A stretch of 58,162 nucleotides of DNA from Acidobacteriaceae bacterium (GCA_003138955.1 PLHP01000200.1:1-58162), one strand, 5' to 3'. Shown: positions 12,990-45,226, counted from the first letter of the stretch. Translations and numbers: made by a program. Notes: a model not told the origin generated them from the letters alone.

Positions 12990-13012
12990 AACATTCTCCA
13001 ATCGAAAAGCTC

Positions 13013-21514: not shown

Positions 21515-22001
21515 AACAGAGATCGTGGAAAAAGTCGCCATCAATATCAAGGTGAACGGCAAGGCCTACCCGCGTCAGGTCGAGCCGCGCTTGTTGCTGG
21601 TCGAGTTTTTGCGGGAGACGTGCGACCTCACCGGCACGCACGTCGGTTGCGACACGACGTACTGCGGCGCTTGCACCGTGCTGATGAACGGACTGGCGAT
21701 AAAGTCCTGCACGGTGTTTGCGGTGCAAGCTGACGGGTCGGAGATCACGACCGTTGAGGGCCTGGAAAAAGATGGCAAGCTTGATCCGATTCAAAGAGCT
21801 TTCGGCGATTCGTACGGCCTGCAGTGTGGCTACTGCACGCCCGGTTTGTTGCTCTCCACCCATCAGTTGCTCGCGCACAACCCCGAGCCGAGCGAAAAGG
21901 AAATCCGCAAAGCGATCGGCGGCAACACCTGCCGCTGCACCGGGTACATGAACGTTTTCAAGGCCATTCGGCAAGCGGGCCTTAACATGAAGGGAGTTTG
22001 A
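21507..22001 (+). CDS. Molybdenum hydroxylase [2Fe-2S] small subunit (CoxS-like)
   Basis: It carries [12 protein letters not shown] and CGYCTPG...CRCTGY cysteine motifs. The ATG at 21507 overlaps the medium-subunit stop by 8 nt. Confidence 0.9.
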
Positions 22002-22002
22002 G

Positions 22003-22515: not shown

Positions 22516-22563
22516 ATGTGTGGGGCAGGCATTTCTGCCGTCGAAGATGGAGGTACTAATAGC

Positions 22564-25984: not shown

Positions 25985-27192
25985 GATTGCGTTGTGAGAC
26001 TGATATGGCCTGGCCCGTAGACAAAACAAAACTCGATCGCGTCCGCGCCCTGATGAAAGATCAGGATCTCTCCGCCCTGGTCTGCCGTGCGCCTGACAAT
26101 GTTCTCTACCTCACCAACTACTGGTGCATGAAGGGCTATGACGCCGTCATCTTTCCGCGCGATGGCGAGCCCACATTGATTGCCCTCGCGCCGCAGCAGG
26201 CCGACGCCGAGCGTAACTCGTGGACAAGAGAAATTCTCTACTTCAAAGGCTACGACGAGTGCGATCCGCGCCCACCGCAGTTCCGCGCCTGGGACCGCGC
26301 CTACGAGGTCCTGAAGCAGCGCGGCCTGACCGACAAAGTTGCCGTCGAACTCAACATGGGCACGCAGTCCGCCGACCGTATGGTGGGCGAACCGACCACC
26401 TTCATGATGTCCTATTTTGAATCGTTCAAGAAGTTTTGCGGCGAGGTCGTGGACGCGACGCCGCTCCTCAACGAGGCCCGCTCGATCAAGACCGGTCAGG
26501 AAGTCGAGCGCATGCGTTTAGCCAACGAACTCGCGGCCCTGGCGATGGATTACACCCGCGAGCACATGCGCCCGGGCATGAAAGAAAGCGAAGTCGGCGC
26601 CATGTATGAAGGCTTCGTGCACGGAACGGGCGTGGGCTACCAAGGCAAAGTCGAGATGGCCCGCGCCTTCACGCTGGTGTGGTCGGGCAAGGGAATTGCC
26701 ACGTTCACCGCAACCGGCGACCGCCCGATTCAGAAAGACGAGCCAACGCTCTTCGAAATCTGGGTCTGTGCGGACGGCTATTGGACCGATCTCACCAAGA
26801 ATGCCTGTCCCGGTGAATTGAAGCCTGAGTATCACAAGCTGCTCGACCTTCTGCTTAAGGTTTTCAACGACGGCGTTGCCTTCGCGCGCCACGGTGCCAG
26901 CTTCCCTGAACTCGACAAACTCATTCGCGCGCGCATCGCCGAAGGCGGATACGCTGGACAGCCCTCCCACCCCATCTGCCACGGCGTCGGCGCCCGCGCC
27001 CACGAATGGCCTTATGCGCACCAGGCCGGCACCGGCACAATAAAAAAGGGAATGGTGCTGGCGATCGAGCCCGGCATTTACTGGCCGGGCGGCGGAGGTC
27101 TGCGTTTGGAAGACAATTTTCTGATCACCGAAAACGGCAACGAAAAACTATGCACCGACCCGGACGATTTCCGTCTGGCAAAACATCACTGA
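25981..27192 (+). CDS. M24-family metallopeptidase / creatinase-prolidase-fold hydrolase, copy a
   Basis: It has a creatinase-like N-domain followed by a pita-bread domain. Ligand-position residues look largely canonical (..GYWTD.T, HGVG, LAIEPG, LRLED). The ATG at 25981 overlaps the PanE stop (ATGA); an alternative ATG lies at 26005. Confidence 0.75.
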   Translation: MRLRCETDMAWPVDKTKLDRVRALMKDQDLSALVCRAPDNVLYLTNYWCMKGYDAVIFPRDGEPTLIALAPQQADAERNSWTREILYFKGYDECDPRPPQFRAWDRAYEVLKQRGLTDKVAVELNMGTQSADRMVGEPTTFMMSYFESFKKFCGEVVDATPLLNEARSIKTGQEVERMRLANELAALAMDYTREHMRPGMKESEVGAMYEGFVHGTGVGYQGKVEMARAFTLVWSGKGIATFTATGDRPIQKDEPTLFEIWVCADGYWTDLTKNACPGELKPEYHKLLDLLLKVFNDGVAFARHGASFPELDKLIRARIAEGGYAGQPSHPICHGVGARAHEWPYAHQAGTGTIKKGMVLAIEPGIYWPGGGGLRLEDNFLITENGNEKLCTDPDDFRLAKHH

Positions 27193-27217
27193 GAGCTGAG
27201 AACCGGGAACTGAGAAC

Positions 27218-28498
27218 TTGAAAGTGTCCAGCGCAACCACCAACTCGAAGCACGCCCTCGACCCCAAACTCATCGAGCGCATCCTGGCGGAAGTTCGCGA
27301 AGACGAAATCGTCTCCATGTCCAGCGACGTGATCAACATCCCCAGCCCGACCGGCGAAGAACTGCAGATGGCGCAATACATGCAATCGGCGCTGCAGAAG
27401 CTGGGTCTCGACATCACCTGGCAGGAAGTTGAAGAAGCGCGCGCCAACGTGGTCGGCCGTTGGAAAGGATCGGGCGGCGGCAAGAACCTGATGTTCAACG
27501 GCCACATGGACACCTCCAACACTGGCCAAGAAGAATTTCTCACCGGTCTCGGTTATAAACCGCACGCCGTAGTCAAAGACGGCTTCATCTACGGCCTCGG
27601 CATCTACAACATGAAAGGCGCGCTCGTCTGTTACACCAACGCCGTGAAAGCGCTCCAGCGTGCGGGCGTGCGCCTGAAAGGGGACGTCATCATTGCCGCC
27701 GTCGCCGGTGAAATTGAAAAAACGCAGTGGGGTGAATTCAAGGGCAAGCAGTACCGCGGCTACGGATACGGCACGCACTACCTCGTAAACCATGGAGTGC
27801 TGCCCGACATGTGCATTCTCGGTGAGCCCACCGACATGCATGTGGTTCTCGAGCACTTCGGCTCCATGTGGGTGCGCATCTCATGCACGGGAATTTATGT
27901 GCACACCGCCTTCTGCGAGGGCCGTGAAGAAATGAATTCCATCCGCCGCATGGTTGAACTCATGCCGCCCCTCCTGAAGTGGATTGAAGGATGGGAGAAG
28001 AAGGCAAGCTACGGCGGCAGGAAGGCCATAGTGAATCTCGGCGGTATCCGCGGCGGACACGCTTGGCGCGCCAGCCGCACTCCAGAAAAAACGGACTTGT
28101 TCCTCGACGTGCGCGTCCCGCCCACGATCCCCATGGCCGAAGCGCGTCGCGACGTGCAGGGCCTCTTCTTCGAACTTGAGAAAGCGCACGCGGACTGGGG
28201 TTTGGAATTCGAAACCTACGTCTCGGTCCCGGGCGCGCGCATCAGCGAAGAACACGAGATGATCCGCGCTATTGACCGCAATCACAAACGCATCACCGGA
28301 AAAACGCCGGAGAGGGAAGTGGTCACCTGGTGCTCCGATGCCAGCGTGCTCAGCCGGTTCGGAGTCGAGACCGTGAACTACGGCCCCTCCAGTGGCCCGC
28401 GAGACAAAGAGGGAGAAAAAGTTCGCATTCAAACATTGGTGGACATCACAAGAATTTATGCGCTCACCGCCGCCGAATTGTGCGGCGTGAGCGGGTAG
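27218..28498 (+). CDS. M20-family peptidase / amidohydrolase (ArgE/DapE-like)
   Basis: IPSPTGEE...A.Y....L..LG, NGHMDT and the dimerisation-domain layout match the family. TTG start; no in-frame ATG is compatible with the conserved N-terminus. Confidence 0.75.
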   Translation: MKVSSATTNSKHALDPKLIERILAEVREDEIVSMSSDVINIPSPTGEELQMAQYMQSALQKLGLDITWQEVEEARANVVGRWKGSGGGKNLMFNGHMDTSNTGQEEFLTGLGYKPHAVVKDGFIYGLGIYNMKGALVCYTNAVKALQRAGVRLKGDVIIAAVAGEIEKTQWGEFKGKQYRGYGYGTHYLVNHGVLPDMCILGEPTDMHVVLEHFGSMWVRISCTGIYVHTAFCEGREEMNSIRRMVELMPPLLKWIEGWEKKASYGGRKAIVNLGGIRGGHAWRASRTPEKTDLFLDVRVPPTIPMAEARRDVQGLFFELEKAHADWGLEFETYVSVPGARISEEHEMIRAIDRNHKRITGKTPEREVVTWCSDASVLSRFGVETVNYGPSSGPRDKEGEKVRIQTLVDITRIYALTAAELCGVSG

Positions 28499-28573
28499 AT
28501 GCGGTTCGTATCGGGGCATCGCTTTAGCGACGCCAAGAGTGCTTTGAAATCAGACGCCCCTTTAGGGGTTGGG
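28496..28573 (+). repeat. Intergenic repeat element, copy B
   Basis: It has the same 30-nt core (28505-28534) and the second block agacgcccctttaggggttggg. Relative to copy A it has a 5-nt insertion (gcggt). It begins at the TAG stop of the M20 gene. Confidence 0.8.
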
Positions 28574-28587
28574 CATCAGAGGTCCTT

Positions 28588-29733
28588 TTGCCAAGTCCGA
28601 AAGAAATCGATCGCCGTTACAAGAACATCCGCTCCCGCATGCAAGCCGCCGGACTGGACGCTCTGATCGTCTGCGGCAATCAATACGCTGGATTCGAAGG
28701 CGCGGTCTTCTACACGTCCGGATTCGAGATTGTCCATCGTTACGTTTACGTCGTCATCCCGCTCGAAGGCGAACCCACGCTCGTCTTTCCGCGCGAAGCT
28801 CGCTGGATTGGCGACAAAAACAAGCCCTGGGTGAAAGACCAGGTCTGGCCCGACGTTCCCGGCCAATGGCTGCGCGACCGCGCTATCGAGCGCAAATGGA
28901 AGCGCATCGGCACGTTTGGGATGAACTTCGTCATGGCCGTTCGCGACTACCGCGAACTGGCGCAAGGTTCGTTCGAACTCGTGCCCTTTGACCAGGAATT
29001 CGACATGGCACGCGCCGTGAAGAGTGCAGAAGAACTCGTTGAAGTTCGCGACGCCATGGACATCGTCGTCGATGGCTTCTGGGCGCTGGTCGCGGGCTAC
29101 AAGCCGGGCAAGACCGAAGCTGAAATCATGGCGCCCGCGGTGGAGCGCTTCTTCGCTCGCGGCGCCGGCCCGCGCATGATGAACATTCTTCTCTCGGGTG
29201 AACACGGGGAGGCGAACGCGTACTTCAAAGTTCCCGGTCATCGCAAAGTTTCGGGCGACGATCTTCTTCTTTATTCGCTCGAAGTTACCGGAGCGGGCGG
29301 TTATTGGGTGGAATTTTCGCGTGCGCTGATCCAGGGAAAGCCGAGCGCCACCACGCAGAAGATGGCCGACGTTTATCCGCACGCGATGGAATCAGCTCGC
29401 AGATTGATGCGTCACGGCGAACTCGCTTCCACGGTGCATCGCACGGTTGCCGACATATTTGACAAGCACGGTTTCACACTCGGACATCTTTCCGGCCATA
29501 GCATCGGGATGACGATGCTTGAGTATCCCGCCATTGGTGCGAAAAGCGAGGTTCGACTGGAAGAGAACATGATCTTCTCCCTGCATCCGCAGGTCGTGGA
29601 TCAGAACGGAAGGGTTTGCCTCTACACGCAGGACACGTACCGCATCGGCAAGACCGAAGGCGAGTGTTTGGCCAACGTGCCGTGGAAGTTCTTCACGGGT
29701 GAGGAGACGCGGGGAAGCGCGGTGGGAGGTTAG
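28588..29733 (+). CDS. M24/creatinase-fold protein, copy b, with substituted metal-ligand positions
   Basis: The pita-bread fold is recognisable (GYWVEFSR, GHSIG). The positions of the two canonical Glu ligands read SLHPQ and YTQD. TTG start with an AGAGG RBS. Confidence 0.65.
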   Translation: MPSPKEIDRRYKNIRSRMQAAGLDALIVCGNQYAGFEGAVFYTSGFEIVHRYVYVVIPLEGEPTLVFPREARWIGDKNKPWVKDQVWPDVPGQWLRDRAIERKWKRIGTFGMNFVMAVRDYRELAQGSFELVPFDQEFDMARAVKSAEELVEVRDAMDIVVDGFWALVAGYKPGKTEAEIMAPAVERFFARGAGPRMMNILLSGEHGEANAYFKVPGHRKVSGDDLLLYSLEVTGAGGYWVEFSRALIQGKPSATTQKMADVYPHAMESARRLMRHGELASTVHRTVADIFDKHGFTLGHLSGHSIGMTMLEYPAIGAKSEVRLEENMIFSLHPQVVDQNGRVCLYTQDTYRIGKTEGECLANVPWKFFTGEETRGSAVGG

Positions 29734-29736
29734 AGA

Positions 29737-29779
29737 TCAGATTGCAGACGTAAACGGGCCTGTAGAATCTGCAATCTGA
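29737..29779 (+). promoter_or_regulatory. Perfect 12-bp inverted repeat (intercistronic stem-loop or binding site)
   Basis: tcagattgcaga (29737-29748) pairs with tctgcaatctga (29768-29779) across a 19-nt spacer. There is no downstream T-tract. Confidence 0.4.
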
Positions 29780-29810
29780 CCTGTGACCTTCTGATATTAG
29801 GAGCGAAGTC

Positions 29811-30737
29811 TTGCTAAAGATCTGCATCGTCGGCTGTGGTGCGGTGGGCAGCTTGTTTGCTGCGCATCTGGCTAAGAAAGGCGAGGCCGAAATCTGGGCC
29901 TACGACGTCTGGAAAGACCACGTCGAAGCCATCCGCAATAACGGTCTGCGTATTTCCGGAGCCGCCGATTTCACTGCGAAGCTGAATGCCACCAGCGATG
30001 CCAAGGAACTTCCGCGCTGTGACTATGGCATCGTCGCCACCAAAGCCATCCACACCCGTGGCGCGATCGCGCAGGTTGCCCGCGCCTTCGACGAAAACAG
30101 CGCTGTCTGCTCCGTTCAAAACGGCGTCGGCAACGAAGAGATCATCGCGGAACACGTGAAGTACGTCATTCGTGGCACGACGTTCCCCGCCGGACATCCC
30201 ATCGCTCCCGGCCACATCGGCTTCGACATCAAGGGCGACACCTGGATTGGTCCCTTCGAACCGACGAACACTCCGATGTCAAAGGTTGAAGAACTGGCCG
30301 GGCTGGTTACGCGCTCAGGCATGAACGTGATCGCGCTCAAAGATGCGCGCGGCGCGCAGTGGACGAAGCTGATCTTCAATGCGTCCACTAATCCGGTGGG
30401 GGGGCTGACCCTGCTGCATCACGGCGCCGCCACCCGATTTCCGGCGACGGCACAGTTATTCAATGACTTGATCGCGGAGGGTGAGGCGGTAGCGAAGGCG
30501 CTGGGCATCGAACTGCACGGGGATCCGCGAGCGCTGGTGCAAAAGGGTGCGAGCGCTCCCGGAAAACACCGGGCGTCGATGCTGCAGGACGTACTCGCCA
30601 AACGCCAGACCGAAGTCGACTTCATGAACGGCGCAATCGCGAAATGGGGCGAGAAGACCGGCGTTACGACGCCCCTAAATAAAGCCGTATGGGAGCTGAT
30701 CAAGGGCCTGGAGCACGCCTGGAGCGACCCAGATTAG
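29811..30737 (+). CDS. Ketopantoate reductase (PanE/ApbA) family oxidoreductase, copy 2
   Basis: A clear paralogue of 25034-25984, sharing CGA.GSL.AAHLA, QNGVG.EEIIA, W.GPFEPT.TP and AQW.KLIFN. TTG start after an AGGAG RBS. Confidence 0.75.
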   Translation: MLKICIVGCGAVGSLFAAHLAKKGEAEIWAYDVWKDHVEAIRNNGLRISGAADFTAKLNATSDAKELPRCDYGIVATKAIHTRGAIAQVARAFDENSAVCSVQNGVGNEEIIAEHVKYVIRGTTFPAGHPIAPGHIGFDIKGDTWIGPFEPTNTPMSKVEELAGLVTRSGMNVIALKDARGAQWTKLIFNASTNPVGGLTLLHHGAATRFPATAQLFNDLIAEGEAVAKALGIELHGDPRALVQKGASAPGKHRASMLQDVLAKRQTEVDFMNGAIAKWGEKTGVTTPLNKAVWELIKGLEHAWSDPD

Positions 30738-34249: not shown

Positions 34250-34370
34250 AATCGGGGTCTGAGATCTGGCTGAATGAGGCCGCTCGGGCGCAAATCACAA
34301 GGATGTGTGATCAATATCACTGCACCGAGTGAGCGTCTGGGCGACCTTAGGATCTTGCGTGGAGGTCCAC

Positions 34371-36881
34371 ATGGGAGTGGCACAATCGGTCCCGGTCGAA
34401 TCCAACTGGATACCAAGCACCTGCGGCATGTGTCTGCATGGCTGCGGAATCCTGGTACAGGTTCGTGATGGAGTCGCGCTCAAGATCGAAGGCGATCCGT
34501 CTAACCCCGACAATCTAGGCAAGCTGTGTCCCAAGGGCAATGCCGGGCTGTCGCGCTTGTACGATCCCACGCGTGTGCTCAAGCCCATGAAGCGGACGAA
34601 TCCGCAAAAAGGACCCGGCATCGATCCGAAATGGGTGGAGATCTCGTGGGACGAAGCCTACGGCATCGTCGCCCAGGAACTGGGCAAGGTGCGGGCCGAT
34701 GATCCACGCAAGCTGCTCTGCGCTATCGGCGACTTCCAGAGGATTCTTCTGTGGGGCTGGCCGGCAGCGTTCGGTTCGCCGAACTTCTTTACCTCGCTGG
34801 GGAATTACTGTGGTGGTTCTTACCATCCGGTGAATGGCAGCGTCGATGGCTCGTTCGCCGCTATCAACGACTATGACCTGTGCAACTACTGGATCCAGAT
34901 TGGCTCCGGCGACGGATTTTCCTCGCACCTGCACCTTGCAGGCAGTGCCAAGCGGATGGCCGACGCGCGCATGCGCGGCATGAGGGTCGTGAGTCTCGAC
35001 CCGCGCTGCTCAATCGCGTCGGCGAAGGCCGATGAGTGGATTCCCGCCCTGCCGGGCACGGATCGGGCTTTTGTGCTGGGCATGGCCCACGTGCTGATCC
35101 ACGAACTAAAACGTTACGACCGGGAATTTCTGCGCGATCGGACGAACGCTCCGTATCTGGTAAAGAATGACGGCCACCATCTGCGCTCTGCGGACGGTAA
35201 GGCGATGGCATGGGACCTGAAGCTGGGGGCCGCACGCCCGTGGGATGAAGTCGCGGCGGGAAACATGGCGCTGGAGGGAACATTCACTGTGGACAACGCC
35301 AGCGTCCGCACTGGCTTCCAGGTGTGGACGGATCTTTTGGCAGATCACACGCCGGAGCGGATGTCCCAAGTGAGCACGGTTCCGGCCGGCACGATCCGCC
35401 GTATCGCGAAGGAATTCGTGGATGCGGCACAGATCGGCGCCACCATCGAAATCCAGGGAAAGACTTATCCGTTCCGCCCCGCCGCCCTGAATTACTACCG
35501 CGGCTCGCAGTCGCATTCCAACGGCTTGTTCGACAACCTGACGTTCAAGATGATCAATATGCTGGTGGGCAACATCGACGTGCCCGGCGGCCATCTCGGC
35601 GTGCCGCTGGATCATCGCGGCTTCTTCGTGCATCCCGGCGAGGATGGCATGTTGAAGCCGGAGCCGCACCAGTTGCACCCAGCTCCGCCGTTCAAATATC
35701 CGCCCGACTCGACCCACCTGATGGAGTGGTTTCCCATAGGGTTCGACGCCGGGCAGCTCAACACCGAGACCCTCCTCGACCCGAAGAAGTTCGGCCTGAA
35801 TTACGAGCCCGAAGCCGTACTGCTCTACCACTCGAATCCATTGTGGAACCTGCCGGAAACCGACAAGGTCGAAAAGATCATGGCGAAAATGAAGTTTGTC
35901 GTCGCCATTGACATTCAGCACACGGAGTCGACGCAGTGGGCGGACGTATTCCTGCCGGCCCACACCTTCCTCGAGTCTTACTTGCTCAATTGCCTCGAGC
36001 CCCCCGCGGTCACCGGCCACTCGCTGCGGCAGCCGGTCGTCGAACCTGTGGGAGATACGCGCGACGCCTACGATATCCTCACCGAACTGGCGGAGCGGAT
36101 GGGCTTCCGGGATGACTGGAATGACGTCCTGAACATGGTCTGCGGTTATACCGCACAGCCGAAGTATCTCCTCGATTCGGAAAAGCGTTACAGCGTCGAG
36201 GAGTTTTGGGACCAGTACGCGCGCAGCGTCTACGGCGATGAAAAAGGACTGGACTGGTTCAAGGAGCACGGGCACGCGGTGCGCTACCGCACTCCGGAAG
36301 AAACCTACATGCCCTATGGCGACCTGCGCATCCCGTTTTATTTTGAGTTCATCCTGCGAACGGGAGAGGACATGCGGCGCAACTTTACCGAGGTGGGATT
36401 GAAAGACTGGCCGCTCGATAACTACCAGCCCTTGCCGTTCTGGAAAAACTCGCAGGTGATCGAGGACGAGAAGGCGGGCTACGAATACTTCGCGATTACC
36501 TTCAAGGAGGGCCTGCACACTTTCGCCGACACGATGGTGATGCCCTGGCTCTCCGAGGTGAGCGAGAAAGACTCCGTCCATGGCGGCGTTTTGATCAACT
36601 CCCTGACCGCGAGAAAGCTGGGATTGAAGACCGGAGACCGCATTCGCCTGACTTCGCCGGCCGGAAGCATCGAGGGGTTTGCGCAGGTGATCGAAGGCAT
36701 TCATCCGCAGGTGTTCGGAGTCAGCAACACCCTGACGCGGTACGTCGTAACCAACGACCGGGCGAAGGAACGCGGTACGCACTTCAACCGGCTGCTGACG
36801 GGATCGATGCGCTATACCGACAGCGCCACGGGTGGGCTGGAATCGACGGCGCGGGTCCGAGTGGAATGGGTTCGAGCCTAG
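34371..36881 (+). CDS. Molybdopterin (bis-MGD) oxidoreductase catalytic subunit, DMSO-reductase family, no Tat signal
   Basis: The ATG at 34371 follows GGAGG. The N-terminal C-x2-C-x3-C-x27-C [4Fe-4S] motif reads CGMCLHGCG...LCPKG. At 836 aa, its length and composition are typical of Psr/Phs/Soe-type A subunits. No RR motif exists in the only 14 possible upstream codons. Confidence 0.85.
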   Translation: MGVAQSVPVESNWIPSTCGMCLHGCGILVQVRDGVALKIEGDPSNPDNLGKLCPKGNAGLSRLYDPTRVLKPMKRTNPQKGPGIDPKWVEISWDEAYGIVAQELGKVRADDPRKLLCAIGDFQRILLWGWPAAFGSPNFFTSLGNYCGGSYHPVNGSVDGSFAAINDYDLCNYWIQIGSGDGFSSHLHLAGSAKRMADARMRGMRVVSLDPRCSIASAKADEWIPALPGTDRAFVLGMAHVLIHELKRYDREFLRDRTNAPYLVKNDGHHLRSADGKAMAWDLKLGAARPWDEVAAGNMALEGTFTVDNASVRTGFQVWTDLLADHTPERMSQVSTVPAGTIRRIAKEFVDAAQIGATIEIQGKTYPFRPAALNYYRGSQSHSNGLFDNLTFKMINMLVGNIDVPGGHLGVPLDHRGFFVHPGEDGMLKPEPHQLHPAPPFKYPPDSTHLMEWFPIGFDAGQLNTETLLDPKKFGLNYEPEAVLLYHSNPLWNLPETDKVEKIMAKMKFVVAIDIQHTESTQWADVFLPAHTFLESYLLNCLEPPAVTGHSLRQPVVEPVGDTRDAYDILTELAERMGFRDDWNDVLNMVCGYTAQPKYLLDSEKRYSVEEFWDQYARSVYGDEKGLDWFKEHGHAVRYRTPEETYMPYGDLRIPFYFEFILRTGEDMRRNFTEVGLKDWPLDNYQPLPFWKNSQVIEDEKAGYEYFAITFKEGLHTFADTMVMPWLSEVSEKDSVHGGVLINSLTARKLGLKTGDRIRLTSPAGSIEGFAQVIEGIHPQVFGVSNTLTRYVVTNDRAKERGTHFNRLLTGSMRYTDSATGGLESTARVRVEWVRA

Positions 36882-36889
36882 GGGGAAGC

Positions 36890-37183
36890 ATGACGAGCGC
36901 AAAGATTGCGGCACTGGGGACGACGCGCAAGATGCTGGGATTCAGCCGGCGGACGGTGGAGGTCGAGTTTGACAATGCCACGGTCGCCGATGTCCTGCGC
37001 CAGTTGCCGACCCTGGACGGGCGCACCCTCTATGACAACCTGGTTTGCGACGGACGGTTACGCGGCGATTTCGCGGTGGTGGTAGATGGTCTGAGTTTGA
37101 AAGCGGATCAGTTGAACAGGCGCCTGCAGGGAGGCGAGGAGGTCGTCACCATGGCGATCTTGCGCCACCTGCACGGCGGCTGA
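36890..37183 (+). CDS. MoaD/ThiS-like beta-grasp protein with a C-terminal Gly-Gly
   Basis: 97 aa, with the ATG following GGGGGA. The layout matches MoaD: ...TVEVEFDNATVADVLRQL......L.......L...FAVVVDG.......L..GEEVV........GG*. It ends LHGG immediately before the stop. Confidence 0.6.
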   Translation: MTSAKIAALGTTRKMLGFSRRTVEVEFDNATVADVLRQLPTLDGRTLYDNLVCDGRLRGDFAVVVDGLSLKADQLNRRLQGGEEVVTMAILRHLHGG

Positions 37184-37193
37184 CGGAGCGCCC

Positions 37194-37805
37194 ATGGCTA
37201 GATACGGAATGGTGATCGACCTGAAGCGGTGCATCGGCTGCAATTCGTGCACCCTCGCCTGCAAGCAGGAAAACGGTACACCCGAGGGCGTGCACTTTGC
37301 CCGGGTAGTGACGCGCGAAGTGGGGACCTACCCCGCAACCAAGCGAACCTTCCTGCCCGTGCTTTGCAATCACTGCTCGGACGCGCCTTGTGCGGAAGCC
37401 TGTCCCACCGGTGCCACCTACATCCGTGCGGATGGAATTGTGATGGTGGATAAGGGAAAGTGCATCGGCTGCCGCGCCTGCAACGTGGCTTGTCCATACA
37501 TGAACCGTCACTTTGTCGCGAAAGGCCTGCTCACGGGCTACGGCACGGACGGCCTAACGCCGTATGAAGCGATCAAGTTCCTGGACTTTGAAGAAGGCAC
37601 CAATATCAAGTGCACGCTGTGCGCGCCTCGCGTGGACCAGGGTCTGGAACCAGCGTGCGTCATAACTTGCCCAACGGATGCTCGCGTCTTTGGCGATGTG
37701 GAGGATCCAAACGGCAAGCTGCAGCGCCTAGTCAAAGATCGGAAGGGCTGGACCTTGTCGCCCGAGTACAACACAAAGCCCAACGTGTGGTACCTGGACG
37801 AATAG
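37194..37805 (+). CDS. Four-cluster [4Fe-4S] ferredoxin-type electron-transfer subunit (PsrB/DmsB/SoeB-like)
   Basis: Four Cys groups are present: CIGCNSCTLAC, CNHCSDAPCAEACP, CIGCRACNVACP and CTLC...ACVITCP. Confidence 0.9.
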   Translation: MARYGMVIDLKRCIGCNSCTLACKQENGTPEGVHFARVVTREVGTYPATKRTFLPVLCNHCSDAPCAEACPTGATYIRADGIVMVDKGKCIGCRACNVACPYMNRHFVAKGLLTGYGTDGLTPYEAIKFLDFEEGTNIKCTLCAPRVDQGLEPACVITCPTDARVFGDVEDPNGKLQRLVKDRKGWTLSPEYNTKPNVWYLDE

Positions 37806-37836
37806 TGAGATCCGGCGCAGGAAGCAGGGAGAGACA

Positions 37837-38742
37837 GTGACCACACAAAGTGTTGGAATTGCGAACCACCGTTTCGCGTTCGGGTACTACCGCCAAACGT
37901 TCTGGAACTGGCTGATCGGCACCGCTTTCTTCCTCGGCGGTCTGGGCGCGGGATTGTTTGTCCTGGCGTTGCTCACCGATCACACGGCCGGGATGCTGGT
38001 CGGGTACCTGATCGTAGTCGTCGGCAAAAACACCGCGCACTTGCTTTTTCTCGGCCGGCCGGAGCGTTTCTGGCGGGCGGCGATGCGTCCCGACCGCTCA
38101 TGGATCGCGCGTGGCATCTGGGCCATGGGATTGTTTGCGGTGAGTGGCCTGATTCTGCTCTTACCTCGCGTGCTGGGGCCCGCATGGCAACTCTCCGGCT
38201 GGCTGAACGGCGCGGCCACGGCGGTTGCGGTTCTGTCGGCGGTCGTCATCATGTTCTACGATGGGTTCGTCATGAACTCTTCCCCGGGAGTTGCTTTCTG
38301 GCGGACGCGCCTGCTCCCGCTCCTGCTCCTGATGTATGCAACTTTGGGTGGCGCCACGTTGTCGCTGACGATTCGCGAACTCCGGGGAGAGGCAATTCCA
38401 GGCTTTCTTCCCACGCTCGAACACGGATTGCTGGTGGTGAATTTTGTCCTGCTCGCAGTCTACCTGGCGCGCATGAACCGCTCGTTACCCGCCGCGCGCG
38501 AGACTCTGCGCCAGTGGTTGAGCGGGCCATATGCACGCGTGTTCTTTGGACTGGTTCTGCTGGTCGGACTATTGGCTACTCTGCTGCTCTCGGTGGTTCA
38601 GAGTCACGTGCAGGCGACCGGGCTCGTTTTACTCATTGCCGCCTGTGAACTAACCGGCGATTTCACTTTGGTGATGGTCTTGCTGAAGTCCGGTTTGTTT
38701 CCGCGGCAGACTGCGCTCGCGTACAGCGCCCGCGGCATCTGA
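37837..38742 (+). CDS. NrfD/PsrC-type polytopic membrane anchor subunit
   Basis: 301 aa with about 8 TM helices. W.WLIGTAFFLGGLGAG and LGRPERFWRA..RP.RSWIARG are NrfD/DmsC-family hallmarks. GTG start after GGGAGAG. Confidence 0.8.
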   Translation: MTTQSVGIANHRFAFGYYRQTFWNWLIGTAFFLGGLGAGLFVLALLTDHTAGMLVGYLIVVVGKNTAHLLFLGRPERFWRAAMRPDRSWIARGIWAMGLFAVSGLILLLPRVLGPAWQLSGWLNGAATAVAVLSAVVIMFYDGFVMNSSPGVAFWRTRLLPLLLLMYATLGGATLSLTIRELRGEAIPGFLPTLEHGLLVVNFVLLAVYLARMNRSLPAARETLRQWLSGPYARVFFGLVLLVGLLATLLLSVVQSHVQATGLVLLIAACELTGDFTLVMVLLKSGLFPRQTALAYSARGI

Positions 38743-38787: not shown

Positions 38788-39996
38788 ATGAGCAAACATG
38801 CTCGCCTGTGCTATTTCGATCACGCCTCCTTAGGACGGCCTGGCCGCAAGACCATCGAGCGGGTATGGAAGGAAGTCGCCCGCGCAAGCCAATTCGCCAC
38901 CAGCGGGACGCTTGAGACGCTTCGGCAGTTCAAGGCTGTTGACGATGCCCGGCGCCGGATCGCGCGTTTCGTTCACGCCGATCTGGAAAGTGTTCTGCTG
39001 GTCGGGAACACAACGCAGGCGCTGGGCATGATTGCAACTGCACTGCCCCTGCATCGAGATGACAACGTCCTGATTGCGGACGTCGAATTCATGGGAGTAA
39101 CGGTAGTGTGGCGGAACATCTGCCGCCGCCTTGGCGTTGAGTTGGTGCCGGTCCCCAGCACGGGAGGGCAGCTTGCCGCCGAACATTTTTCGCGGTTCGC
39201 CAATTCCCGGACCAGGGCCATCGTCATCAGTACCGTGCAGGAAGTGAGCGGGTGCCGGGCCGATGTCGAGACGATTCGCGAAGTGGCGTCAAGAAGCGGC
39301 GCCTTTCTGATCGTCGATGGCATTCAGGAAGTGGGTGCGGTCCCGGTTTTCTTCAAAGAACTCGGTGTAGATGCCTACTGCGCGGGCGGGCACAAGTGGA
39401 TGCGGAGCCCGTTTGGAACGGGATTTGCCTGTCTGAGCCAGCGGCTGCTTGAGGTGCTCGACCCCAGCTACCATGGATATCTGGCGCTGGCCGAACCGGA
39501 GATGGGTTGGGATCGCTACATGGGACTAACGTCACGTTCACCGTTTGACCTGTTACCGCTACGGCAGGATGCTGTTCGCCTGGAAACCGGAGGGTTCCCG
39601 AACTGGCTCGGAGCCGCTGCTCTAGATACAGCGGCGAGTGAACTCGAATCCAAAGGACAGACACGCGTGTGGGCCCGAATCCGGCGCTTAAGGAAACGCC
39701 TGGTTGCGGGACTTAGCGAAATGGGAGTTGAGATACTTGGCGGGGTCGACGTTCCCGAGAGGACACAGTCGGGAATTGTTACGTTTCATCTGTTAGGTGG
39801 TGCGGGACAAGAAAGACTGCTTGGCCGGCGCCTGAGTGAGGAACATATCCAAGTTTCGTTGCGATATGTTTCAGGAATAGGAGGGGTCCGTGTGGCGGTT
39901 CACGAGAGTAACAACGCGGACGAAGTAGATTACCTTCTCGATGTTGTGCGCTCCTTCTTGCGCGGTGCAGCATACAAGATAGGCTCGCACGCTTAA
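38788..39996 (+). CDS. Class-V aminotransferase-fold PLP enzyme (paralogue 1)
   Basis: 402 aa. GGHKWMRSPFGTGF supplies the PLP-lysine motif, and the C-terminal VRVAVH..N is class-V like. Confidence 0.8.
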   Translation: MSKHARLCYFDHASLGRPGRKTIERVWKEVARASQFATSGTLETLRQFKAVDDARRRIARFVHADLESVLLVGNTTQALGMIATALPLHRDDNVLIADVEFMGVTVVWRNICRRLGVELVPVPSTGGQLAAEHFSRFANSRTRAIVISTVQEVSGCRADVETIREVASRSGAFLIVDGIQEVGAVPVFFKELGVDAYCAGGHKWMRSPFGTGFACLSQRLLEVLDPSYHGYLALAEPEMGWDRYMGLTSRSPFDLLPLRQDAVRLETGGFPNWLGAAALDTAASELESKGQTRVWARIRRLRKRLVAGLSEMGVEILGGVDVPERTQSGIVTFHLLGGAGQERLLGRRLSEEHIQVSLRYVSGIGGVRVAVHESNNADEVDYLLDVVRSFLRGAAYKIGSHA

Positions 39997-40063
39997 GTAG
40001 CGATAAGAGACCATTCAATCGACATTTTCTTTTTTACTCCAAAACAGAAGCTTCGGAGCCGCT

Positions 40064-41500
40064 CTAGTTGCGCTGAACCTTCCAATACACAAGACTGATT
40101 CCGGCCAGCAAAGCCGCAAAGATCGGAACTGAATAGCGCAGGCCCTCCACATAAAAAGTGCTGCACCCGATGGCAACGAGAAATAAGATGCCCATGATGC
40201 TGGAGACCGGAAACAGCCGGAGCCGTAACGGCAAATCGTTTACCTTGGCACCGATGGAGCGGCGAAACCGCAGGTGAGCCAGGAGGATAACGATCCACAC
40301 AAAGTACATTCCCGCGACTGCGGAACCGTACATGAGGAGAAATGCGCCTTTGGGAACGTAAATGGCCAGTAAAATCGCAAGTACCATTCCTAAACTTGAA
40401 ACAGCTAGCGCCCGATGCGGCACCCCGTTCCGGCCCAAACGCCCCAAGGGCTCAGGCGCATAGTGTCCTCGCGCCAGAGAGAAGAGCATCCTGGTGGTAA
40501 GGTAGAGGTCGGTGTTCGCGCTGGAAAGTGCCGCCGTGATCACAACCAGATTCATGATCGCGGCCGCGTAAGGAATGCCAATTGCTGCGAAGACGCGTAC
40601 GAATGGACTGCCGCTGATGGTCCCGTCACCGATCTGGTTCCAGGGAGACACGGTGACCATCACGGTCATCGCCAGAACATAGAACAGGATCAGACGGAAA
40701 ACCATCGTGCGCATGGCGCGCGGGATCGCTTTTTCCGGCCGCTCTGCCTCTCCCGCCGTGACTGCAATCACCTCGACCCCCATGTAACTCGAAATGGTGA
40801 GAGTAAAGGCCAGCCACACGCCAAGATACCCATGAGGCAGGAAGCCGCCATAGGCGACGAGATTTCGAAATCCCACCGCCGGACGGGGGGACAAGCCGGT
40901 GATCAGCGCGATCCCAATCAATATGAAAACGATGATCGCGACCACCTTCACAAAGGCGAACCAATACTCGAATTCTCCAAAATTGCCAACCTGCGCGGCA
41001 TTGATGGCTACAAGTCCAACGGAAACCAGGGCGACCCAAAGCCACTGCGGCGTTCCCGGAAACCAATACCGAAAATAAATGGCCACTGCTGTAACCTCGG
41101 CGCCAATGGCCACCATCTGGACCAGTCCGTAAGTCGCACGCACGGTGAAGCCGAACCACGGACTCAGGTAGCGCTCGGCATAGATACCAAACGCGCCGGC
41201 TACCGGATGGACCACCGCCATCTCAGCCACTGCGTAAGCTACGATCAGGGCCAGAATCGCCCCAAGAAGATAATTAAGAATGACCGCCGGCCCGGCAAGG
41301 TCAATGGTTACGCTACTGCCCAGGAAAAGACCGACTCCAATGGCGCCGCCAATGGCGATCATGGAGATCTGGCGCTCGGTCAATCTCCGCTGCAAATTCT
41401 GCGCCGAGGGCGTCGAGTCGAGGGCTTGCTCGCCTGCAGGGTCCGCGATTGTCACCGTGACCTTCCGCCTTCTTGCTTCGTCGCCGGACGCAGCAGACAT
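40064..41500 (-). CDS. APC-superfamily amino acid permease
   Basis: 478 aa with about 12 TM helices. The N-terminal L.RRLTERQISMIAIGGAIGVGLFLGSS signature matches amino-acid permeases of the AroP/GabP/LysP type. Confidence 0.85.
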   Translation of the reverse strand: MSAASGDEARRRKVTVTIADPAGEQALDSTPSAQNLQRRLTERQISMIAIGGAIGVGLFLGSSVTIDLAGPAVILNYLLGAILALIVAYAVAEMAVVHPVAGAFGIYAERYLSPWFGFTVRATYGLVQMVAIGAEVTAVAIYFRYWFPGTPQWLWVALVSVGLVAINAAQVGNFGEFEYWFAFVKVVAIIVFILIGIALITGLSPRPAVGFRNLVAYGGFLPHGYLGVWLAFTLTISSYMGVEVIAVTAGEAERPEKAIPRAMRTMVFRLILFYVLAMTVMVTVSPWNQIGDGTISGSPFVRVFAAIGIPYAAAIMNLVVITAALSSANTDLYLTTRMLFSLARGHYAPEPLGRLGRNGVPHRALAVSSLGMVLAILLAIYVPKGAFLLMYGSAVAGMYFVWIVILLAHLRFRRSIGAKVNDLPLRLRLFPVSSIMGILFLVAIGCSTFYVEGLRYSVPIFAALLAGISLVYWKVQRN

Positions 41501-41515
41501 GACATGTTGTGCAAA

Positions 41516-42784
41516 CTAATTGCCAGCGATCTCCTCCAATGCGTTGACGAACCTGCGGATCTCATCCTGCGTGTTGTAGTGCACCAGCGAGGCTCGCACC
41601 GCGCCGCCCTCGCTCAATACTAGCCGTTTCATCAGCCTCGGCGAATACATATTGCCATCCCGCACTGCGATCCCCTTGGCGGCCAGCCTGGCTGCTACCG
41701 TAGCGGGTGGAACGCCCGCAAGATTGAACAAGAACGTCGGCAGCCGTTGCGCAATAGCCTTCGGGTCTTGTATGCCGTACACTGTTGCTCCCTTGATTGC
41801 GCCGATACCCGCCAGTAGCGCGCCGGACAGGCAACGTTCATACTGGCATATTGCCTCCATCGCCCTCACCAGGCGTTGACGATGCGAACTCGAGCCATCT
41901 TTTCTGTCTCCGTCACACAGATCTCCGAGTTCCGCCAAGTATTCAATCGCCGCATTCATACCCACAACATTCTCGTAAACGAACGTTCCCACCTCAATTT
42001 TTGAGGGCGGAGTATTCGGAATGAAGTCTTCGCGGAAGGTTGGCAGAGCCTCGAGGGCCGCGCGGCGGCCCCACAAGAAGCCCATGTGTGGAGCGAAGAT
42101 CTTGTAGCCGGAGCAGACCAGATAATCGCATCCCCAGGCCCTGACGTCGATGGGGCCGTGGGGCGCGTATTGCACGGCATCGAGGAAAACCTCGGCGCCC
42201 GCGGCATGGGCTCTCCTCGCCACCTCGGCCACATCTATGATCGTTCCTAAAGCATTCGACGCTACCGTACAGGCTACCAGCCGCGTCCGGGAAGAGAGCA
42301 GCGGCTCCAGGTCGGCCACACGCAGAGTGCCGTCGTCAGCTACGTTCCACCACCGGATGACCGCGCCTTCACGCTCCAGGGCCAGCCAGGTTGCGACGTT
42401 GGCCTCATGATCGAGATCGGTCACGATGATTTCGCGCCGCTCTGCCAGAGTCTGCCCAATGGCGAGGCTTACCAAGCGCATGAAGGACGTGGCATTCATA
42501 CCGAATGCAATCTCATCGGGATCGGCCGCGTTCAGAAAAACTGCCACTGATTTCCGGGCTTGGGCGATCGCGGCATCCACTTCCTGGCTTTCCCGGTAGC
42601 AACCGCCTCGCTGCACGCTTCGCGTGAGCAGGTGGTCGGCAACCGCGTCCAGGGCTTTCTGGGGGATTTGGGCTCCCGCGGCATTATCGAAGAACATGGA
42701 GCTCCCTGGCCGATTCAACGCAGGAAACATCTGCCGCACGCGATCTACGGGGAATTCCGCCAGGTTGGCCGCTCTTTCACGCAT
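41516..42784 (-). CDS. Cysteine-desulfurase-like class-V PLP enzyme (paralogue 2, no catalytic Cys at the SufS position)
   Basis: FDNAAGAQ.P, DHEANV and SGYKIFAPH.GFLWG (PLP Lys) are present. The segment aligned with SufS GIAVRTGHHCAMPL reads GIAVRDGNMYSPRL. Confidence 0.75.
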   Translation of the reverse strand: MRERAANLAEFPVDRVRQMFPALNRPGSSMFFDNAAGAQIPQKALDAVADHLLTRSVQRGGCYRESQEVDAAIAQARKSVAVFLNAADPDEIAFGMNATSFMRLVSLAIGQTLAERREIIVTDLDHEANVATWLALEREGAVIRWWNVADDGTLRVADLEPLLSSRTRLVACTVASNALGTIIDVAEVARRAHAAGAEVFLDAVQYAPHGPIDVRAWGCDYLVCSGYKIFAPHMGFLWGRRAALEALPTFREDFIPNTPPSKIEVGTFVYENVVGMNAAIEYLAELGDLCDGDRKDGSSSHRQRLVRAMEAICQYERCLSGALLAGIGAIKGATVYGIQDPKAIAQRLPTFLFNLAGVPPATVAARLAAKGIAVRDGNMYSPRLMKRLVLSEGGAVRASLVHYNTQDEIRRFVNALEEIAGN

Positions 42785-42816
42785 AGATCACCTCAACAAA
42801 GAATTCCGCGCGCATT

Positions 42817-44058
42817 CTAATTCTGCCTGGTGGCTTTCGCGGCAACCCGTCCGTTGCTCTTGCGCGGTACAGCCGACTCGATGGCTTCGAGCAGCCGGTC
42901 GATGTCGGCGGTATTGTTGAAAAAATGACAGGAGACTCGCACCCCGCCTACATTCGATGTATAGCGCACCGAAACTAAAATCTTCAGCTCGAGGAGCTTC
43001 TCCATCAGTCGGATGTTTTCTGCCGCAGAGCCAACGCTGAAGGTCACGATCCCGGAACGATGCTTGCGCGCGACCGGCGTCACGATCTCAATGCCGAGAG
43101 CTTGTAGTCCTTCGATGAGGTGATCGGTCAAGGCGTAGGTGTGCTCGGCGATGCGGTCCTGGCCGAGAGACTGAATCATTTTCAGCGCAGCCGCTAATCC
43201 GATGCCTCCGGCGTAATTTGCCGTCCCGCCGATCTCGTAAACCCGCGCGCCTTTCGTGAATTCATAATCCATGACCGGCCGAATCGATGGTGTCTGGAAA
43301 TGGGCTCCCCATCCACCTTGCGGCGGCTCCACGTTCATGTAACCAGTAAGAGGCGGCAGCAACTTTCGCAACGCCTCCCGCCGGATGTACAAAAAGCCCA
43401 TGCCAAACGGAGAAGTGAGCCACTTATGTCCGCCGCAGGCAAGAAAGTCCACCGGCGTCTTTTGCACATCGAGGGGAATTGCGCCGAGCTGCTGGATCGC
43501 ATCCACGACAAGCCAAACTTCCTTTTCAGCGCAAAGAGAACTGAGTTTCTCGAGATCGCATCGGAAGCCATTACTCCACTGCACCGTACTAATGCAGACG
43601 ACTCTTGTCTTCGATGTCAAGCGCTCTGCAATGTTCTGTACTCTCACTTCCCCGTTCTGGTTGGGGACAACATCGATGCTAATGCCCCGTGCCGCCAGTT
43701 GGATCCAAGGTACGGCTACTTCCAGAAACTCCAAATCGGATATAAGGACGCGGTCGCCAGGCGAAAGAGGAATCGATTGGGCGGCGATGCTGAGCCCGTG
43801 ACTGGTGCTTTCCACCAAGGCGATCTCATCTTCGTCCGCATTGATCAGGCGCGCGGCTTCCGGCCGGGCGAGAGCGCGCATTTCATCCATCGAGATGTGA
43901 TGCAGAGTGGACGATCGCGCCGGGCAAAGCAGCGTCATGTCGAGAAAATTTCGGATCGCTTCGGTGGCCACACGAGGGGCAAGGCTTACGCACGCGGCAT
44001 CCAGGAACGTCTTGTGTAGAAGCGCGGGAAATTGTTCGCGAGCGTCCTCAAAATCCAT
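42817..44058 (-). CDS. Class-V aminotransferase-fold PLP enzyme (paralogue 3)
   Basis: It carries the GGHKWLTSPFGMGFLYIRR PLP-lysine motif. The start lies 1 nt after the stop of paralogue 4. Confidence 0.8.
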   Translation of the reverse strand: MDFEDAREQFPALLHKTFLDAACVSLAPRVATEAIRNFLDMTLLCPARSSTLHHISMDEMRALARPEAARLINADEDEIALVESTSHGLSIAAQSIPLSPGDRVLISDLEFLEVAVPWIQLAARGISIDVVPNQNGEVRVQNIAERLTSKTRVVCISTVQWSNGFRCDLEKLSSLCAEKEVWLVVDAIQQLGAIPLDVQKTPVDFLACGGHKWLTSPFGMGFLYIRREALRKLLPPLTGYMNVEPPQGGWGAHFQTPSIRPVMDYEFTKGARVYEIGGTANYAGGIGLAAALKMIQSLGQDRIAEHTYALTDHLIEGLQALGIEIVTPVARKHRSGIVTFSVGSAAENIRLMEKLLELKILVSVRYTSNVGGVRVSCHFFNNTADIDRLLEAIESAVPRKSNGRVAAKATRQN

Positions 44059-44059
44059 T

Positions 44060-45226
44060 TCAGTCGCCGCTCACAGCGGCCGTGCCGGTGACCAGCAGGT
44101 CGAGATTCTGTTCTAACACCTGGAGGACTGCCCGTACATCCTCGAGAGTATTGTAGACATGGAAAGAAAGGCGCAGCCCATCGTGGCGGCTGGAACACAC
44201 GATCCCGTTGGCCGCCAGTTTTTCGACCAATCGGGCGGCGTCCTTGCATTGGAAAACGACGAGCGGTCCCACGCTTGTGGTTGGTGTTTTGGCAATCAGG
44301 CCCAGTTTCTGCGCCCCCTTTAAAAGTGCGCTTGTCAGTTCGTGGATCTGCCAGGATACGTTGTCTAGTCCGATCTCCTGCAATAACTCAATGCCCCGCA
44401 TGGCTGCATAGATATTGGGCACGGCAGGAGATCCTTCTTCAAACCTGCGCGCCGAAGGAGCGGGATCGAAACATTTCACGTCGAAGGCGAAAGGATTGCG
44501 TTGCGCAAACCAGCCTGTAATCGTGGGCTGGAGAGATGCGATCAGCTCCTTGCGGACATACAAAAATGCCAAGCCGGGTGGTCCCAACAGGTACTTCAGC
44601 GTTCCCGTTACATAGAAGTCGACGTCCGCAGTTCGAACGTTCACCGGCCGAGTGCCACAGTCCTGGTAATCATCCAGCATAACCAGCGCGCCATTGGCGT
44701 GCGCAAGCGGAACGACTTCGCGGACTGCCGAGCGGAAGCCATTCATGAAGCAAACTCCGGTCAGGGGAACGATGAGAGTTTGGCGGTCGATCGCGCGCTC
44801 GTAATTTTCCGTCGGAATCGAATTGCCCACCGCGCTGACAAACTCGACTTGAGCTCCGCGCTTCTGCTGGGCCAGCCAAACATGGCCCATGGTCGGAAAC
44901 TCGAATTCGCCCATTACCACTTTCCTCCGGCGATCAAACGTCAAAGCGCTGGCAATCGAGTTCATGCCAGCCGATGCACAGGGGACGATGGCAACTTCAT
45001 CGGCGGTGGCGCCGATAAAACCGGCGAACTGCGACCGTGCTGCCTCATATCTCTCCACCCAAATATCCCACGGTGAACCATGCTCATGCCAGCTCGCCAC
45101 GTACTCACGAAGACCGTTCTCCACGGCGTCCGATAGCGCTCCTTGCGAGCAACTGTTCAGATAGATCTTGTTCCGGAGGAGGGGGAATCGCGATCGAATC
45201 GCTTGTAACTCGGGGCTGCTTAGCAT
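44060..45226 (-). CDS. Class-V aminotransferase-fold PLP enzyme (paralogue 4)
   Basis: N-terminal FPLL.NKIYLNSCSQGALS, TGTLKYLLGPPGLAFLYVRK (PLP Lys) and C-terminal LRLSFHVYNT.EDV are present. Confidence 0.8.
   Translation of the reverse strand: MLSSPELQAIRSRFPLLRNKIYLNSCSQGALSDAVENGLREYVASWHEHGSPWDIWVERYEAARSQFAGFIGATADEVAIVPCASAGMNSIASALTFDRRRKVVMGEFEFPTMGHVWLAQQKRGAQVEFVSAVGNSIPTENYERAIDRQTLIVPLTGVCFMNGFRSAVREVVPLAHANGALVMLDDYQDCGTRPVNVRTADVDFYVTGTLKYLLGPPGLAFLYVRKELIASLQPTITGWFAQRNPFAFDVKCFDPAPSARRFEEGSPAVPNIYAAMRGIELLQEIGLDNVSWQIHELTSALLKGAQKLGLIAKTPTTSVGPLVVFQCKDAARLVEKLAANGIVCSSRHDGLRLSFHVYNTLEDVRAVLQVLEQNLDLLVTGTAAVSGD

Follow-up and report, generated by a model that had tools for sequence, protein, structure and literature searches.

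What does a gene for a sulfur-carrier-like protein do inside the operon of a membrane-anchored molybdoenzyme, and which reaction does that enzyme carry out? The question is posed by four tightly packed open reading frames (ORFs) on the + strand of a 58,162-nt stretch of DNA from an Acidobacteriaceae bacterium (GCA_003138955.1 PLHP01000200.1:1-58162), the whole of which is referred to here as the window. The ORFs encode a catalytic subunit (A), a small protein of 97 residues (S), a ferredoxin (B) and a membrane anchor (C), in the order A-S-B-C (Table 1). An earlier note on this DNA had claimed this anatomy and had proposed, partly from the flanking pyridoxal phosphate (PLP) enzymes, that the operon encodes a cytoplasmic sulfur- or selenium-handling redox system. 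The operon was compared with a set of 91 loci (L001-L091), 86 of which carry the A family; the other five are a 29% relative (L005), the Escherichia coli nrf control (L086) and three loci without a + strand match to A (L036, L037 and L046). We give roughly an even chance to the reading that the complex is a cytoplasmic dehydrogenase that oxidises an organic substrate and is linked to quinone, S being a sulfur carrier dedicated to maturing its cofactor.

Operon anatomy and identity of the small protein

The four-gene anatomy was borne out: the ORFs occur at the coordinates that the earlier note had claimed, and the Pfam domains and the FS0 cysteine motif of A were recovered. The genes are separated by gaps of 8 nt (A-S), 10 nt (S-B) and 31 nt (B-C). 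The ATG start codon of A is preceded by GGAGG at 34361-34365, five bases upstream, and that of S lies behind GGGGGAAG. The product of the small gene ends in LHGG. In agreement with the earlier note, we found no published A-B-C operon of the dimethyl sulfoxide (DMSO) reductase family that contains such a gene; the nearest precedent is a MoaD gene beside that of aldehyde:ferredoxin oxidoreductase (AOR) (PMC1779556).

In the protein database, S is represented by 283-295 clusters at 90% identity. A profile search using diverse S sequences stayed within this family, returning 295 clusters, mostly acidobacterial. When 13 copies of S from five phyla were aligned, they proved to be 25-79% identical to the window copy. 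The C-terminal Gly-Gly (GG) is invariant from Acidobacteria to Archaeoglobi, and the alignment motif, NG...L..G[DE]..V..M....GG, is typical of MoaD/ThiS. All 13 copies matched the Pfam ThiS model (PF02597) at E ≤ 1, with a best value of 1.5e-8; the window copy itself was sub-threshold, scoring 14 bits for a cut-off of 22.5. A profile of the S family, searched against the Protein Data Bank (PDB), matched Ta0895, a CysO-type carrier, MoaD and SAMP1, down to 2.8e-7. The structure of S was predicted with AlphaFold2 (AF2) using a 44-sequence alignment. This model, with a predicted local distance difference test score (pLDDT) of 87.9 and a disordered GG tail, superseded one made from the single sequence, for which the pLDDT was only 68. 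A Foldseek search with the S model gave HVO_2177, SAMP1, Urm1, MoaD and CysO as best matches at a probability of 1.0, with template modelling (TM) scores of 0.55-0.69 for the last four. Judged by these alignments, profiles and models, S is a genuine MoaD/ThiS-family beta-grasp protein of the sulfur-carrier type, as the earlier note had proposed. A beta-grasp of the [2Fe-2S] ferredoxin type was considered and rejected because S has no conserved cysteine motif.

Two S homologues from Chloroflexota run past the GG: that in L002 (10632-10952) by 8 residues (GGSSWFVGAW) and that in L065 (9481-9774) by 4 (GGQAVS). Unless they are artefacts of sequencing or gene calling, such tails would call for processing of the C-terminus, as ubiquitin-like precursors undergo.

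The structural matches to SAMP1, HVO_2177 and Urm1, together with a weak match of S to the NCBIfam SAMP1 model (E = 8.6e-4), could also point to a SAMP/Urm1-like modifier that is conjugated to A or other proteins for regulation. We consider this very improbable. Genes for E1, JAB or other deconjugating proteins were not found nearby, and SAMP1 itself doubles as MoaD, so the structural match does not separate the two roles.

Identity of the catalytic subunit

A contains the Pfam domains Molybdop_Fe4S4, Molybdopterin and Molydop_binding. The four FS0 cysteines (C18, C21, C25 and C53; spacing C-x2-C-x3-C-x27-C) are invariant in 13 diverse orthologues, and C147 aligned with a cysteine of ArrA and with Cys173, the molybdenum ligand of Thermus PsrA. 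Scores against the NCBIfam equivalog models were all far under the respective cut-offs: 276.6 vs 694 for PhsA, 175.5 vs 1600 for ArrA, and 78.9 vs 1750 for TtrA. The best PDB sequence matches were ArrA (2.3e-48) and PsrA (4.4e-40), mainly over the N-terminal third, and these nearest characterised homologues are only about 25-30% identical to A. A tblastn search of plasmids, made in looking for PadB, yielded nothing above 32.7% identity; its best full-length match was a Sporomusa C-B-A-TorD operon at 29%.

An exhaustive search with A returned 804 cluster representatives at E ≤ 1e-30. In the genome scan, members of the A family at 45-98% identity were found in Acidobacteria, Chloroflexota, Gaiellales and other Actinomycetes, Bacillota (Desulfosporosinus, Peptococcaceae), Geobacterales and other Deltaproteobacteria, Alphaproteobacteria (Emcibacter) and Archaeoglobi. 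The next relatives in the database, 36-48% identical, are all unnamed metagenomic proteins. By these sequence comparisons, A is a member of an uncharacterised, widespread family in the Cys-ligated, NrfD-anchored branch of the complex iron-sulfur molybdoenzymes.

Among relatives of A at 33-38% identity, many (e.g., P0287, P0291, P0296 and P0304) have N-terminal extensions of about 40 residues with respect to the query, which are possibly leaders for twin-arginine translocation (Tat). Other relatives, such as P0275-P0286, have no extension. The wider superfamily may thus include changes of orientation.

Orientation of the complex

The in-frame region upstream of A comprises 14 codons and then a stop codon, and it contains neither a twin-arginine (RR) motif nor a hydrophobic stretch. 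Extending A upstream in 77 orthologues likewise revealed no Tat-like leader, and in all 77 the first FS0 cysteine comes 15-30 residues after the likely start. A missed, frameshifted leader was rejected: the other upstream frames have no RR or hydrophobic segment and the absence is family-wide. The claim in the earlier note that A is Tat-less thus stood for the window, with no missed RR start, and holds across the orthologues. B lacks a signal peptide, since its first Cys motif begins at residue 13. This subunit is 51-97% identical across the family, and its best NCBIfam matches, ArrB, DsrO and TtrB, were all under cut-off.

The topology of C was evaluated from the distribution of Lys and Arg residues (K/R). 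A PDB sequence search with C gave no match to PsrC, and E. coli NrfD, whose iron-sulfur partner is periplasmic, was used as the topology control instead. C sequences were aligned with NrfD and K/R were counted for each homologous loop. In the window C, the N-terminus, loops 2-3, 4-5 and 6-7, and the C-terminus together contain 18 K/R, as compared to 2 in the other loops. Similarly, 12 C subunits of the family have 10-21 K/R in these segments vs 0-4 elsewhere. The corresponding counts for E. coli NrfD are 5 vs 10. Since the bias of C is reversed with respect to NrfD, the positive-inside rule predicts an inverted anchor with both termini on the cytoplasmic side (N-in and C-in). A review of NrfD-like proteins names SoeC as the sole inverted subunit of this kind, the peripheral subunits of SoeABC being thought to be cytoplasmic (PMC8076601). 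From the absent leaders and the charge bias of C, the prediction that A and B face the cytoplasm is well supported, and the charge bias provides independent support for the cytoplasmic orientation of the molybdenum and iron-sulfur module proposed in the earlier note.

A Tat-less A with a Cys ligand, an NrfD-type anchor and a predicted inverted topology are also what an orthologue of the SoeABC-type sulfite:quinone oxidoreductase would have. It is nevertheless highly unlikely that the complex is one. Sulfur-oxidation context was seen at none of the loci examined, such genes being found neither in the window nor among the recurrent neighbours elsewhere. The best-scoring named relatives of A are PhsA, ArrA and PsrA, all of low identity, and the nearest database relatives are unnamed. 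Finally, the published range of SoeC (Proteobacteria, a few Clostridia and Aquificae; PMC8076601) omits the Acidobacteria, Actinomycetes, Chloroflexota and Archaeoglobi that dominate here, although it overlaps with the A family in Alphaproteobacteria and Clostridia.

Distribution of the small protein

Of the 91 loci, 45 carry S in the position that it has in the window. It lies between A and B in almost every acidobacterial locus, and also in single loci that branch deeply, belonging to Chloroflexota, Gaiellales, Clostridia and one unassigned lineage. In the Archaeoglobi-type loci, L072 and L087, the gene order is B-C-A-S; indeed, S is directly 3' of A in every S-containing locus, these two included. 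One Chloroflexi metagenome-assembled genome (MAG; GCA_016210495.1) carries two A-S-B-C operons (L002, 8001-12457; L089, 681-5195), whose A paralogues are 57% identical and whose S paralogues are 39% identical. In both cases, the operon is followed by genes of a split thiamine diphosphate (TPP)-dependent decarboxylase (TPP_enzyme_N and TPP_enzyme_C).

Conservation of the A-S-B-C order, a matter raised in the earlier note, was therefore partial. It extends to nearly all acidobacterial loci, but S is missing from two of these (L022 and L035) and from many orthologous operons in other lineages. In most relatives in which A is 45-56% identical, B comes straight after A, with spacing that ranges from a 4-nt overlap to a 19-nt gap. 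In a neighbour-joining tree of A, the S-containing loci comprise the Acidobacteria and basal branches, and the S-less ones form derived clades (Alpha- and Deltaproteobacteria; Actinomycetes; Bacillota and Geobacter). This pattern is consistent with S being ancestral and having been lost on several occasions.

A gene for the FdhD sulfurtransferase (261 bits against the NCBIfam model) adjoins the operon in eight S-less loci of three lineages (L050, L055, L056, L062-L064, L074 and L075) and in none of the S-containing loci. In a further S-less locus, L088 (13090-14426), the order is A-B-C-FdhD, followed by a MobA-like NTP_transf_3 gene.

The constant adjacency of S to A, even in the B-C-A-S order, its duplication along with A, and the failure to find an E1-like or MoaE gene nearby would also suit a structural or regulatory role in which S, as a subunit without catalysis or sulfur chemistry, docks on A, much like the ubiquitin-like TmoB of toluene monooxygenase. 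We regard this possibility as improbable. The GG, on a predicted flexible tail, is invariant in bacteria and archaea while the rest of S falls to 25-40% identity, and conservation of the GG only is typical of carriers that are activated at the C-terminus. Moreover, S-less A orthologues are of the same length and have gained no compensating domain.

Gene neighbourhood and regulation

The coordinates of the operon and of other features in the window are collected in Table 1. Genes of the xanthine-dehydrogenase/CO-dehydrogenase family, which form a cluster in the window, adjoin A-(S)-B-C in Alphaproteobacteria, Actinomycetes, Bacillota and other Acidobacteria. The pairing of M24 and ApbA genes recurs with a branched-chain-type ATP-binding cassette (ABC) transporter at the S-less locus L090 (7049-9078), in which A is 55% identical. 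Neighbours that recur across phyla include xanthine-dehydrogenase-family trios; a cyclic amidohydrolase resembling hydantoinase, dihydropyrimidinase or allantoinase; a four-subunit 2-oxoacid:ferredoxin oxidoreductase with a GltD-like NAD(P) subunit and sub-threshold matches to PadE, PadG and PadI; split TPP decarboxylases; an IOR-like enzyme; ApbA-type reductases; ATC-hydrolase-like proteins; sigma-54/PAS activators; NCS1 nucleobase permeases; and hydantoinase A/B. POR-like genes with the GltD-like subunit adjoin many relatives, and a gene for an AMP-binding ligase is present in L003; neither adjoins the window operon.

Table 1. Features of the window, with positions counted from its first nucleotide.
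Feature	Coordinates	Strand	Basis
Subunit A, Tat-less Cys-ligated Mo/W bis-pyranopterin catalytic subunit, FS0 [4Fe-4S] site, 836 aa	34371..36881	+	Pfam PF04879, PF00384, PF01568
S, MoaD/ThiS/SAMP1-like beta-grasp protein, C-terminal Gly-Gly, 97 aa	36890..37183	+	Alignment, Pfam ThiS, AF2, Foldseek
Subunit B, four-cluster ferredoxin electron-transfer subunit, no signal peptide, 203 aa	37194..37805	+	Pfam Fer4_11 and related domains
Subunit C, NrfD-type eight-helix quinone-interacting anchor, predicted N-in/C-in (inverted), 301 aa	37837..38742	+	Pfam NrfD, E = 1.2e-12
CRP/FNR-type palindrome TGTGATCAATATCACT, putative operator of the operon's own promoter	34306..34321	+	65 nt upstream of A start
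Xanthine-dehydrogenase/CO-dehydrogenase-family cluster: FAD subunit, probable 2Fe-2S subunit, CoxG-like protein, 836-aa molybdenum subunit	20621..25026		
Duplicated ApbA (ketopantoate-reductase-like) and M24 (creatinase/ectoine-hydrolase-like) genes, M20 deacylase in between	25034..30737		
Four paralogous class-V (cysteine-desulfurase-like) PLP genes around an amino-acid permease gene	38788..45226		

The class-V PLP genes bear on the proposal of the earlier note that the operon, with these enzymes, handles sulfur or selenium. Here, the thiocarboxylate or selenocarboxylate of S would be the substrate, product or acceptor of the complex, and the cysteine-desulfurase-like enzymes would feed it. 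In keeping with this, S has the invariant GG of sulfur carriers; PhsA, PsrA and ArrA, the nearest characterised relatives of A, act on sulfur, selenium or arsenic species; the cytoplasmic topology is shared with SoeABC; and one of the four PLP genes 3' of the operon (41516-42784) passes a curated cut-off (TIGR01976), the only one to do so. The neighbourhoods speak otherwise. The PLP genes adjoin the operon only in L006, L009 and L066, in which A is 94-98% identical to that of the window, and are absent from L007, L008 and L010, in which A is still about 95% identical, and they do not form a conserved component of the system. No dsr, sox, apr, rhodanese or E1-like gene is recurrent in the neighbourhoods of the loci examined, and the neighbours that do recur across phyla are enzymes of organic catabolism. 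Loss of S from many orthologous operons is also unexpected for an obligatory substrate carrier. We accordingly judge a sulfur or selenium redox system to be quite unlikely.

Two luciferase-like oxidoreductases are encoded in the window (7075-8202 and 30794-31861); the latter, scanned against NCBIfam, gave F420-dependent LLM families as its best matches. A 571-aa radical-SAM protein with a CofH/MqnC C-terminal region is encoded at 11736-13451. These genes provide a hint, from sequence matches, of F420-linked chemistry in an acidobacterial catabolic island.

Upstream of the operon, the palindrome TGTGA-N6-TCAC[A/T/C] is present 59-77 nt from A in the window and in 16 acidobacterial loci (e.g., L006, L007, L010-L013, L015-L018, L021, L029, L036, L038 and L066), and the flanking intergenic sequence has diverged. 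Looser variants occur at -124 to -143 in three further loci (L028, L035 and L037). The palindrome is a putative operator for the operon promoter. In another acidobacterial subclade, a gene for an Rrf2-family regulator is found immediately upstream of A instead of the palindrome. An Rfam scan of the window gave no matches, so no molybdenum cofactor (Moco) riboswitch or other RNA was detected there. A scan of the window for promoters and terminators was uninformative, the terminator-like matches all being weak and inside genes.

Proposed function

In the dehydrogenase reading, A, with a molybdenum or tungsten bis-pyranopterin and a Cys ligand, would oxidise a cytoplasmic organic substrate, acting as a dehydrogenase or hydroxylase. 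Electrons would pass from A through the four clusters of B to C, which would reduce quinone. This direction is favoured because the studied relatives in architecture that face the cytoplasm, SoeABC and PadBCD, give electrons to quinone, and an organic substrate is favoured because the neighbours share a theme of ring-opening hydrolases and 2-oxoacid enzymes. On the gene context, the substrate step may belong to the catabolism of an N-heterocycle, a cyclic amide or an arylacetyl-type compound, yielding or handling a 2-oxo acid. A candidate reaction is the PadBCD-like oxidation of an activated methylene group. The sequence indole to oxindole to isatin was considered for the cluster of xanthine dehydrogenase, ABC transporter, amidohydrolase and POR genes; no supporting literature was found and it is kept as a possible example only.

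For its activation, S would depend on a housekeeping E1-like enzyme, encoded elsewhere, that adenylates and thiocarboxylates its C-terminal glycine. The thiocarboxylate may then give its sulfur to the pterin dithiolene or to a terminal Mo=S ligand of the A cofactor. In S-less relatives, housekeeping genes or the operon-linked FdhD, accompanied once by the MobA-like gene, would cover this role. An enzyme-specific maturation carrier is suggested by the invariant GG on a flexible tail, the strict linkage to A and the co-duplication with A. It is suggested as well by the dispensability of S, the presence of FdhD beside some S-less operons, and the precedent of MoaD linked to the tungsten AOR (PMC1779556). 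Taken together, the sequence patterns and analogies make it most likely that S is dedicated to maturing the pterin cofactor of A; a catalytic or substrate-carrying role is less likely.

Several observations weigh against this reading. No ThiF/MoeB, MoaE or other Moco gene was found in the window or, at 23 acidobacterial loci, within about 4.5 kb of the operon, and the sulfur-relay partners of S are therefore assumed. The complementarity of S and FdhD is seen in only three or four lineages that are independent of one another, and at many S-less loci FdhD too is missing within 7-9 kb. Because the nearest characterised homologues of A are so distant, the substrate and the direction of the reaction come from context only. 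That context is itself variable in Acidobacteria, where Rrf2 or CRP-type regulation, TonB receptors and some xanthine-dehydrogenase-type genes are found, and in the window cysteine-desulfurase-like genes do adjoin the operon. The fully specified combination, in which the S thiocarboxylate is an enzyme-specific sulfur donor in a new inverted-NrfD, quinone-reducing family, FdhD replaces S in sister clades, and the family performs PadBCD-like methylene hydroxylation in N-heterocycle or arylacetyl catabolism, is rather unlikely to be correct in all of its parts.

If the predicted orientation is right, the A family would be the second NrfD-anchored complex with cytoplasm-facing peripheral subunits, beside SoeABC, going by the review of these proteins (PMC8076601). 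Its occurrence in bacteria and archaea bears on how such complexes are coupled to the quinone pool and the proton gradient. The pattern of S vs FdhD amounts to a natural experiment that makes it testable whether ubiquitin-like sulfur carriers serve individual enzymes. In addition, the neighbours that are conserved suggest a catabolic route not yet described, which may be anaerobic or microaerobic and would join two kinds of molybdenum hydroxylase with ring-opening amidohydrolases and a 2-oxoacid oxidoreductase.

Comparison with known systems

The arrangement combines features of known kinds: a SoeABC-like topology, the architecture of the complex iron-sulfur molybdoenzymes and an enzyme-linked MoaD. 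In SoeABC of Allochromatium vinosum and Aquifex aeolicus, as in the window, a molybdenum bis-pyranopterin guanine dinucleotide (Mo-bisPGD) subunit is joined by a four-cluster ferredoxin and an NrfD-type subunit, giving three subunits in all. The two systems also share the absence of a Tat leader, peripheral subunits on the cytoplasmic (N) side, an inverted anchor (predicted for the window) and an expected reduction of quinone. The window family differs in lacking a sulfur-oxidation gene context and in occurring mainly in phyla outside the published SoeC range; furthermore, no MoaD-like gene has been described for soe operons.

PadBCD, a phenylacetyl-CoA:acceptor oxidoreductase of Thauera and Aromatoleum that is likened here by its description, is also a membrane-bound molybdenum-iron-sulfur enzyme with a cytoplasmic organic substrate. 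Its subunits are comparable in size, being reportedly of about 93, 27 and 26 kDa (attributed to Rhee & Fuchs 1999). Relatives of the window operon adjoin genes for PadE/G/I-like oxidoreductases. In the PadBCD pathway, the product is a 2-oxo acid that is consumed by a neighbouring multi-subunit 2-oxoacid oxidoreductase (PMC5109826). Unlike the window operon, the identifiers of padB to padJ in EbN1 are consecutive, implying that no annotated gene lies between padB and padC, and the window operon has no adjoining coenzyme A (CoA) ligase or POR gene. The NCBIfam scan, which holds PadE, PadG and PadI models, gave no match to a PadB model.

PsrABC, PhsABC and ArrAB(C) are the closest characterised sequences and structures, with the same FS0 motif, the same position of the Cys molybdenum ligand and the same types of B and C. 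Those enzymes are Tat-exported and face the periplasm, whereas the window A scores far under their equivalog cut-offs and the charge bias of its anchor is reversed.

For S, the closest parallel is provided by MoaD genes that are strictly adjacent to those of the tungsten AOR and were proposed to supply its pterin cofactor (Iyer, Burroughs & Aravind 2006, PMC1779556). In both cases, a MoaD/ThiS paralogue stands outside the general Moco operon and strictly adjoins the gene for the catalytic subunit of a pterin enzyme. The window enzyme is of the DMSO reductase family rather than an AOR, and S is accompanied by neither MoeB nor MoaE. The FdhD of formate dehydrogenases differs from S in its unrelated fold and its persulfide chemistry, and it is absent from the window. 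As proposed for S, however, FdhD is an operon-linked maturation factor that gives sulfur to the bis-molybdopterin guanine dinucleotide (bis-MGD) cofactor, and it adjoins S-less members of the A family.

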